The notes: generated by a model from the letters alone, not told the origin. DNA of 64,000 nucleotides from Escherichia coli (GCF_030384885.1 NZ_CP128613.1); one strand, 5' to 3'; positions 53,424 to 54,527 are shown, counted from the first letter of the stretch. Made by a program: numbers and translations.

Positions 53424-53657
53424 CTGATTAAACAGGGAAGTTTAATCTTTGCACGTTGCATAACCTTTAATTATTCATATACATTGCTGTTATTACTTTT
53501 TATATAACCAACACCAATAATTAACCTTTCTTTTCTGTTTATATAGAGTGAGCACGGCTATTTATGTTATTTTAACAACTATTACTACCAAGCCCATTTA
53601 TCTGGCTTATAAATTAAAATTAATTATTTAATTGAGAAATGGTTAGGGAGAACCTAC

Positions 53658-54527
53658 ATGGCCATAAGCATCAAGGGAGTTAATACCGGTGTTATTCGCA
53701 AGAGTAATAATTTCATTGCACTGGCGCTGAAAATTAAAGAGCCTCGCAATAAAGAATCGTTGTTCTTTATGTCTGTCATGGAACTGCGAGACCTGCTGAT
53801 TGCGCTGGAAAGCCGTCTGCATCAAAAGCATAAACTGGATGCTGATGCACGTCTTCAGTATGAGCAGACTCGCGATAAAGTTATTAAGAAAATGGCAGAA
53901 AATATCCCAGAAATTCTGGTTGATGAGCTTAAAAATGCCGATATTAATCGCCGAGTTAATATGCTGGAACTTACCGATAATCAGGGTGAAAATCTTACCT
54001 TCGTATTAACGCTACATGACGGTAGCAAATGTGAGTTAGTCATCAATGAATTGCAGATTGAAATGCTGGCGCGAGCAATCATTCATGCAATTAATAATGC
54101 GGAAATGCGTGAACTGGCATTACGTATTACCTCACTGTTAGATTTCCTGCCGTTATACGACGTTGACTGCCAGGACAATGGCAATCTGGAATATGACACC
54201 TATTCCCAACCGGAATGGAAACATAACTTGTTCAACCATTATCTGGCAGTGCTTTATCGCTTTAAAGATGAAAATGGCAAAGAGCAATTTAGCGGCGCGG
54301 TGGTGAAAACGCGTGAAGCAACGCCGGGTAAAGAAGTGGAGGCGATCACTCGCCGAATGCTTGATTTCAGCCCCAGACTGAAAAAACTCGCGGGTGTGCC
54401 ATGTCAGGTCTATGTTCGCACCGTAGCGGCAAATAACACCCAACCGCTAACCCAGGATCAATGCTTACGCGCGCTGCATCACTTACGTGTTCAGTCCATC
54501 AGCAAAAGTGCACCACAAGCGAAATAA
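53658..54527 (+). CDS. yjeJ: Conserved protein of unknown function
   Basis: 289-aa ORF; AT-rich gene with a very AT-rich 234-bp upstream region. Confidence 0.85.
   Translation: MAISIKGVNTGVIRKSNNFIALALKIKEPRNKESLFFMSVMELRDLLIALESRLHQKHKLDADARLQYEQTRDKVIKKMAENIPEILVDELKNADINRRVNMLELTDNQGENLTFVLTLHDGSKCELVINELQIEMLARAIIHAINNAEMRELALRITSLLDFLPLYDVDCQDNGNLEYDTYSQPEWKHNLFNHYLAVLYRFKDENGKEQFSGAVVKTREATPGKEVEAITRRMLDFSPRLKKLAGVPCQVYVRTVAANNTQPLTQDQCLRALHHLRVQSISKSAPQAK

Follow-up and report, generated by a model that had tools for sequence, protein, structure and literature searches.

The AT-rich patch around yjeJ of Escherichia coli: probably a long-resident, expressed gene with its own promoter

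The yjeJ locus and its base composition

The window analysed here is a stretch of 64,000 nucleotides from Escherichia coli (GCF_030384885.1, NZ_CP128613.1), in which the RefSeq gene order around the locus is efp (minus strand), epmB (plus), yjeJ (plus, 53658-54527), yjeI (minus) and groL/groS (minus). The gene epmB ends at 53423, and the AT-rich island that a sequence-only reading had placed directly after it, reaching to the end of yjeJ, was thus drawn at the correct coordinates. The RefSeq product name is "YjeJ family protein", and the protein matches PF15922 with E = 2e-172 and 572 bits against a cutoff of 27, over residues 1-283 of the 283-position model. From 5' to 3', the features of the locus are the following.

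53424-53657, no strand: spacer between epmB and yjeJ, 28.2% GC, carrying the yjeJ promoter region and 5' leader (composition, rank, and alignment with K-12, E. albertii and E. whittamii)
53521-53549, plus strand: TTAACC-17-TAGAGT, predicted "constitutive" sigma-70 promoter from RpoD SELEX in K-12 (PMC3946193)
53565-53573, plus strand: TGTTATTTT, extended -10-like element of the form TG-n-TATTTT, the best-conserved upstream motif across genera
53638-53654, plus strand: conserved block AATGGTTAGGGAGAACC with the Shine-Dalgarno sequence, GGGAG at 53646-53650, 7 nt before the ATG
53658-54527, plus strand: yjeJ coding sequence, 289 aa, YjeJ family PF15922, 44.3% GC rising from 5' to 3', with three PUR/Whirly-like repeats predicted
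54546-54567, no strand: GC-rich hairpin with a 9-bp stem between the convergent yjeJ and yjeI, -19.5 kcal/mol, z -3.4

The region from 53300 to 54700 is 100% identical to E. coli 2013C-4282 (NZ_CP027579.1), and over the whole 64 kb the two sequences differ by only 3 substitutions, at window positions 8225, 16356 and 60013, and by the length of one homopolymer, an A-run near 50308 in the ampC-blc spacer that is A7 in the window and A8 in NZ_CP027579.1. The substitution at 16356, an A instead of a G, creates a premature stop in a potassium-channel-family gene between yjfK and yjfJ (15592-16662, minus strand), which is annotated as intact in NZ_CP027579.1 and is split in the window into ORFs of 102 and 251 aa. 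The window also holds a match to the guanidine-II (mini-ykkC) riboswitch, a known element upstream of sugE/gdx, at 51196-51242 on the minus strand (50.4 bits against a gathering score of 32).

The yjeJ of K-12 (b4145, PF15922) is the same gene, with 96% protein identity and with neighbours and core upstream sequence alike. The window strain differs from K-12 in being without REP/BIME elements on either side of yjeJ, so that the upstream spacer is 234 bp against 394 bp and the spacer between yjeJ and yjeI 49 bp against 202 bp, and the upstream spacer is more AT-rich than in K-12. The extra 160 bp or so of the K-12 upstream spacer is a REP/BIME-type palindromic element directly after the epmB stop codon, with its target sequence repeated on both sides; in the alignment it is present in K-12 and E. 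whittamii, and missing in E. albertii and the window strain. The element between yjeJ and yjeI is found in K-12 and E. albertii, in both of which it adjoins the hairpin there, and the window strain is without it. The positions at which the two elements are lacking are 53424-53450 and 54568-54576. It is because the REP element is missing that the spacer has 28% GC here and 35-37% in the strains that bear it. In K-12, ampC amplicons that arise in evolution experiments repeatedly have a boundary in the epmB-yjeJ spacer (PMC12625342), in keeping with recombination at the REP/BIME repeats. The hairpin at 54546-54567 is probably a terminator hairpin common to yjeJ and yjeI, and was missed by the consensus terminator scan because it has no T run. 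After epmB the window strain has no strong hairpin, only a weak one (z -1.6), and other genera have a clear hairpin at this place; as there is no clear epmB terminator in the window strain, transcription may read through into yjeJ.

The AT-rich patch is real and beyond chance. A GC content as low as that of the spacer is found in only 0.05% of the 234-bp segments of the 64 kb, and among the 35 spacers of at least 50 bp (length-weighted mean 41.9%) only one is lower; it has several short A/T tracts, and 33 of its 233 dinucleotide steps are TpA. The gene itself, at 44.3% GC, stands against 53.1% in epmB, 54.5% in yjeI and 52.8% in groL, and is the third lowest of the 66 genes of the window (mean 51.5%, z -1.95). 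Its GC content by thirds is 40.7%, 42.1% and 50.0% from 5' to 3', its GC2 of 31.5% is the second lowest of the 66 genes, and its GC3 of 45.0% (rank 6 of 66, z -1.6) is low but within range. Spacer and gene together, 1104 bp, have 40.9% GC against a window mean of 51.5%, which places them in the lowest 0.03% of segments of the same size. The earlier description of an extremely AT-rich spacer with multiple A/T tracts, and of a gene AT-rich in comparison with epmB and groL, therefore stands, and an AT content clearly above the surroundings over several hundred bases is what an H-NS-silenced island would have. A second AT-rich block, the yjfI-yjfM operon at 13872-17906, reaches an equal or higher AT level, with 37% GC in yjfI, 43% in yjfL, and 25% in the yjfI-rlmB spacer, the lowest in the window.

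We computed the GC content to be expected from the amino acids of YjeJ and the codon usage of the other 65 genes in the window. For yjeJ this gives 48.2%, where the genes have a mean of 52.4% (SD 2.4), and the observed value lies 3.8 points below the expected one. The protein is high in Leu, Lys, Asn, Ile and Glu, and the GC deficit of the gene is about half a matter of amino-acid composition and about half of A/T-leaning synonymous sites. Such a protein lowers the GC content of second positions and accounts for some 4 of the 8 missing points, and a lean towards A/T at synonymous sites, like that of other weakly expressed genes, gives about 4 more. Codon adaptation is ordinary, with a CAI of 0.32 (rank 28 of 66), and the codon-usage chi-square per codon, scaled for size, ranks 34 of 66, so that the atypical codon usage or poor adaptation of an island gene is not seen in a comparison of the 66 genes. 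The chi-square of yjeJ against its neighbours is formally significant (p = 1e-4), which counts against the explanation that we prefer. Indistinguishable GC content and codon usage had been named beforehand as what would speak against a foreign gene; as it turns out, GC content differs from the neighbours and codon adaptation does not.

The upstream region, expression and H-NS

An alignment of the 180 nt upstream of yjeJ from ten genera has two conserved blocks in otherwise divergent sequence, TGnTATTTT and AATGGTTAGGGAGAACC. The former is found at 37 of the 46 loci and in 10.5% of composition-matched shuffled spacers, and its distance to the start codon is near-fixed, from -91 to -104; in the allele group with NCU1, RIT691 and Pluralibacter it lies at -36 to -56. 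We infer that TGTTATTTT at 53565-53573 is an extended -10 promoter element, and the predicted transcription start is about 7 nt 3' of it, near 53579-53582; in K-12, where the locus is on the minus strand, this corresponds to about 77-80 nt before the ATG. This motif differs from the published promoter TTAACC-17-TAGAGT (PMC3946193), which in our alignment is conserved only within Escherichia. RpoD (sigma-70) holoenzyme binds the K-12 epmB-yjeJ spacer in vitro in the Genomic SELEX of Shimada et al. (PMC3946193). A consensus promoter scan found no plus-strand sigma-70 site in the spacer, but its rules demand a -35 match, and an extended -10 promoter needs none. Rfam has no match in the spacer or in yjeJ, and the RNA structure of the leader is indistinguishable from that of shuffled sequence (z -0.5). 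Within the gene there is a sigma-70-like TTTAAA-17-GATAAT in antisense direction (54238-54266, minus strand), and an RpoH holoenzyme SELEX peak has been reported inside yjeJ (PMC5493296). The AT-richness of the spacer would then be that of the gene's own promoter and leader, with TGnTATTTT, a leader rich in A/T and a strong Shine-Dalgarno sequence, and here it is undiluted by the GC-rich REP elements that K-12 has.

The protein has been quantified in wild-type K-12 grown in LB (PMC9508795). Furthermore, yjeJ is among the listed Nac-regulated genes and declines in long nitrogen starvation (bioRxiv 10.1101/2020.03.30.016519), and a yjeJ deletion is in use as a neutral linked marker (PMC10679819), from which it would seem that loss of the gene causes no gross defect.

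The sequence-only reading took the patch as the signature of an older, horizontally acquired gene that is silenced by H-NS. Spelled out, this would mean that yjeJ was anciently acquired, that its AT-richness is a leftover from the donor, and that H-NS nucleates in the spacer, spreads over the 5' two-thirds of the gene and silences it. The composition is in favour, as 28% GC over 234 bp followed by about 40% over about 600 bp is in the range that H-NS prefers, and since H-NS occupies 14-20% of the K-12 genome, in stretches some 1.5-1.7 kb long, and has a binding motif of A/T only (PMC3064808), binding at yjeJ is plausible on composition alone. The Genomic SELEX study, however, marks H-NS at the ulaG/ulaA spacer, which is also in the window, and not at the epmB-yjeJ spacer (PMC3946193). 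The H-NS nucleation (Lang) motif tCGATAAATT points both ways: inside yjeJ it has four matches with 2 mismatches where about 1 is expected, but in the spacer, where nucleation is supposed to occur, there is no match with up to 2 mismatches, and across the whole window it is not enriched (71 matches against 58 expected). An FNR ChIP-chip peak labelled "yjeI" is seen only in an hns stpA mutant (PMC3688515 Table S7). This might mean that DNA in the vicinity is occluded by H-NS/StpA, but the hint is weak because the same list has many loci that are not H-NS targets. Two FNR-like sites found near yjeJ/yjeI, each with 2 mismatches, are at about chance level. In the available part of the hns/stpA supplementary tables of PMC4288151, yjeJ is not among the genes, which speaks to that extent against silencing. 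It was not found in the supplements of PMC11335895 and PMC12632814 either, and a full-text literature search by b4145 and STM4332 gave nothing useful.

Compared with classical H-NS-silenced loci, such as bgl and acquired islands, yjeJ is alike in being a poorly characterised gene of narrow taxonomic range, with an AT content that far exceeds the genome mean for about 1 kb, promoter included. It is unlike them in being a core gene, syntenic across genera, with no mobility genes and with ordinary codon adaptation, and also in that the protein is detected in the wild type and that published SELEX has no H-NS site. The proposed silencing by H-NS is thus partly contradicted, by the protein in LB, the binding of sigma-70, the lack of a SELEX mark for H-NS and the conservation of the promoter motif and Shine-Dalgarno block. 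In our judgement the odds for H-NS occupancy at the locus are about even, and those for true silencing about one in four. H-NS may coat the DNA of yjeJ and damp its transcription, with a gene that would nevertheless not be silent.

Distribution, age and allele replacement

Of 5426 complete E. coli genomes, 5425 contain the 1.4-kb region from 53300 to 54700, the majority with 95-99% identity. The YjeJ family is small, with 98 clusters at 50% identity among 1.84 billion proteins, and the named members that we looked at are all Enterobacterales (Escherichia, Citrobacter, Atlantibacter, Budvicia, Entomohabitans, Klebsiella, Kosakonia and Serratia). Related loci were sought in species-representative genomes with a pattern-based scan, built from 6 closer sequences, which returned 45 loci and in which a genus without a match, such as Enterobacter, Cronobacter or Raoultella, cannot be read as a genus without yjeJ. 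All 44 loci with sufficient flanking sequence have the order efp-epmB-yjeJ-yjeI-groL; they belong to Escherichia, Citrobacter, Pseudocitrobacter, Kluyvera, Superficieibacter, Salmonella, Trabulsiella, Intestinirhabdus, Yokenella, Kosakonia, Phytobacter and Pluralibacter, and the position is fixed in about 15 genera of Enterobacteriaceae in all. In Klebsiella pneumoniae, too, yjeJ adjoins yjeI-groL; towards epmB, a HlyD/C39-ABC exporter and fimbrial genes have been inserted. Contigs named Bacillus coahuilensis and Bacteroidales MAG carry an E. coli-like yjeJ at 96% identity, and are almost certainly contamination of the assemblies.

The annotated neighbourhood of yjeJ has no mobility genes, integrase, tRNA or flanking repeats, and neither the E. 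coli genomes nor the 44 syntenic loci have the patchy presence or the insertion marks of an island. The conserved synteny across genera implies that yjeJ has been in its slot since before those genera diverged, and this age is a lower bound, taken from the genera that possess the gene.

YjeJ evolves fast in comparison with its neighbours. Between genera the protein identity is 40-76% for YjeJ, 83-94% for EpmB and 96-98% for GroL, and between E. coli and Klebsiella that of YjeJ is 30%. At the distance of Escherichia and Citrobacter, dN is 0.18 for yjeJ and 0.04 for epmB, and dS is saturated. Within Escherichia, yjeJ has roughly double the dN of epmB and a dS that reaches about two times the values of its neighbours, and a dN/dS of 0.04-0.13 indicates purifying selection. 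Since synonymous sites are saturated between genera, the low GC content of yjeJ must be a maintained, gene-specific state and not donor DNA that has yet to be ameliorated. The GC3 of the orthologs ranges from 0.40 to 0.79 across genera; it is low in Escherichia (0.43-0.47), the C. freundii group (0.40-0.44) and Salmonella (0.44-0.47), and it matches the GC3 of the host in Kluyvera (0.63-0.67) and Pluralibacter (0.79). Low GC content in the epmB-yjeJ spacer is a feature that the genera have in common, the median being 35%.

These results bear on the acquired and silenced gene as well. A passive persistence of donor composition is impossible with saturated dS, and the purifying selection, the host-like GC content of the Kluyvera and Pluralibacter orthologs and the ordinary codon adaptation also argue against it, even if a narrow and partly plasmid-borne family is what it would predict. 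Altogether we find this explanation unlikely. Of the claim that yjeJ is an older acquired gene, the great age at the locus is borne out, but a leftover foreign signature is not, given a core and syntenic gene of ordinary codon adaptation with saturated dS. A mobile origin is plausible all the same, because the family is limited to Enterobacterales, has plasmid-borne members and includes one allele replacement.

The strains with that replacement are Citrobacter sp. NCU1 and Awk4, which share 92-95% identity with other Citrobacter in the flanks and only 40-44% in YjeJ. Their nearest YjeJ, at 63%, is that of the RIT691/18056 group, a different lineage; from the alignments, we regard this as one clear case of allele replacement. 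The divergence of YjeJ is thus not fully clock-like. Two K. pneumoniae strains are 99.6% identical in the groL flank and 89% in the ABC exporter, but only 50% in YjeJ. In this species yjeJ lies 12-26 bp 3' of the C39-peptidase ABC exporter (with HlyD) in an operon-like arrangement, the block of exporter and yjeJ is about 25% divergent in DNA between the two strains, and the fimbrial operon lies on opposite sides of the block in the two. The slot has taken up DNA elsewhere too: C. youngae has a spacer of 2 kb, and in Kosakonia and Phytobacter yjeJ is separated from yjeI by 2.1 kb.

There are also relatives outside the slot. Serratia plasmids of 18-57 kb carry full-length YjeJ relatives that are GC-normal at 53%, and E. 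coli plasmids of about 30 kb (e.g. CP088859.1) carry a form of 163 aa with 32% GC, the gene of which comes directly after parA and a small ORF of 69 aa. These point to a mobile pool of YjeJ relatives. PADLOC and PHROGs gave no match of YjeJ to a defence system or phage family, and in the phage collection yjeJ was matched only in chromosomal fragments labelled as phage records.

One could from this imagine that the slot between epmB and yjeI is a hotspot of recombination and insertion, and that yjeJ is one of many cassettes re-seeded from an AT-rich plasmid pool. The Citrobacter replacement, the two divergent K. pneumoniae alleles in their divergent block, the insertions in Klebsiella, C. youngae, Kosakonia and Phytobacter, the coming and going of REP elements and the low GC content of the short plasmid form are all in line with such a hotspot. 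But within Escherichia YjeJ tracks the flanks (93-96% protein identity), no pair has a YjeJ more alike than its flanks predict, and across loci the identities of YjeJ and EpmB to the E. coli proteins are correlated (Spearman rho 0.84). The upstream promoter motif is moreover common to the allele groups, and the Serratia plasmid copies are not AT-rich. We therefore find a hotspot of this kind very unlikely.

Interpretation and the predicted fold of YjeJ

The most rational explanation, to which we give a probability of about 0.6, is that yjeJ is a long-resident, fast-evolving, occasionally allele-swapped and expressed gene of Enterobacteriaceae with its own promoter, and that its AT-richness comes from ordinary sources. 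The gene would have kept a fixed slot between epmB and yjeI-groESL, have now and then been swapped for a divergent allele, and still be functional and expressed. The interpretation of the sequence-only reading survives in so far as the gene is old, AT-rich and possibly of mobile origin, while a leftover foreign signature and silencing are unsupported. That the patch is nothing specific, only the low tail of ordinary variation in gene and spacer composition, is scarcely credible, for although yjfI and the yjfI-rlmB spacer are equally extreme and yjeJ is only at the 5th percentile of 870-bp segments, the combined 1104 bp are far more extreme than that, and the low GC content of the spacer and its motifs are conserved across genera.

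An AlphaFold2 model of YjeJ, built with an alignment of 23 sequences, has a pLDDT of 93.6 and a pTM of 0.89, and consists of three beta-beta-beta(-beta)-alpha units with helices joining them. Repeated beta-beta-beta-beta-alpha units of the PUR type are thus present in the predicted structure. At the level of sequence, membership of PUR/Whirly finds no support in the searches: Pfam has no hit beyond the YjeJ family, and none to PUR, a PDB sequence search with the family profile matched no solved structure, and Foldseek against PDB and BFVD (viral models) gave nothing significant (E 0.03 or worse). YjeJ differs from the PUR-alpha/Whirly/PC4-like fold in having no sequence similarity to it (11% identity) and in its extra helices between the repeats, and COMM domains reach scores similar to those of the weaker PUR hits. 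YjeJ is, by prediction, a cytoplasmic protein with three PUR/Whirly-like repeats, and this fold class, which is that of single-stranded nucleic-acid binders, suggests that it would bind nucleic acid. Our best guess, from fold and context only, is that YjeJ binds single-stranded nucleic acid and that this is possibly tied to mobile DNA, a link that comes to mind because relatives sit in the maintenance regions of plasmids.

It is tempting to go further and propose that YjeJ is a previously unrecognised bacterial three-repeat PUR/Whirly-like nucleic-acid binder, fixed in a slot by groESL and diversifying fast through interaction with mobile DNA, plasmids or phages, with the AT-rich promoter as a conserved regulatory platform that may be modulated by H-NS or Nac. 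We consider this a speculative and decidedly unlikely combination as a whole.

The novelty is low, because the gene and the YjeJ family were already known and annotated. A poorly characterised core gene of E. coli that is AT-rich and has an AT-rich promoter is familiar, and the AT-rich patch, as first described, matters little. A high AT content by itself is weak evidence of foreign origin or of H-NS silencing. In yjeJ, half of the deficit is driven by amino acids, the gene pre-dates the split of the genera, and it is expressed. What could be worth following in YjeJ is the confident model with PUR/Whirly-like repeats and the conserved extended -10-type motif, and likewise the unusually high divergence of the protein, with at least one allele replacement, and its plasmid-borne relatives.
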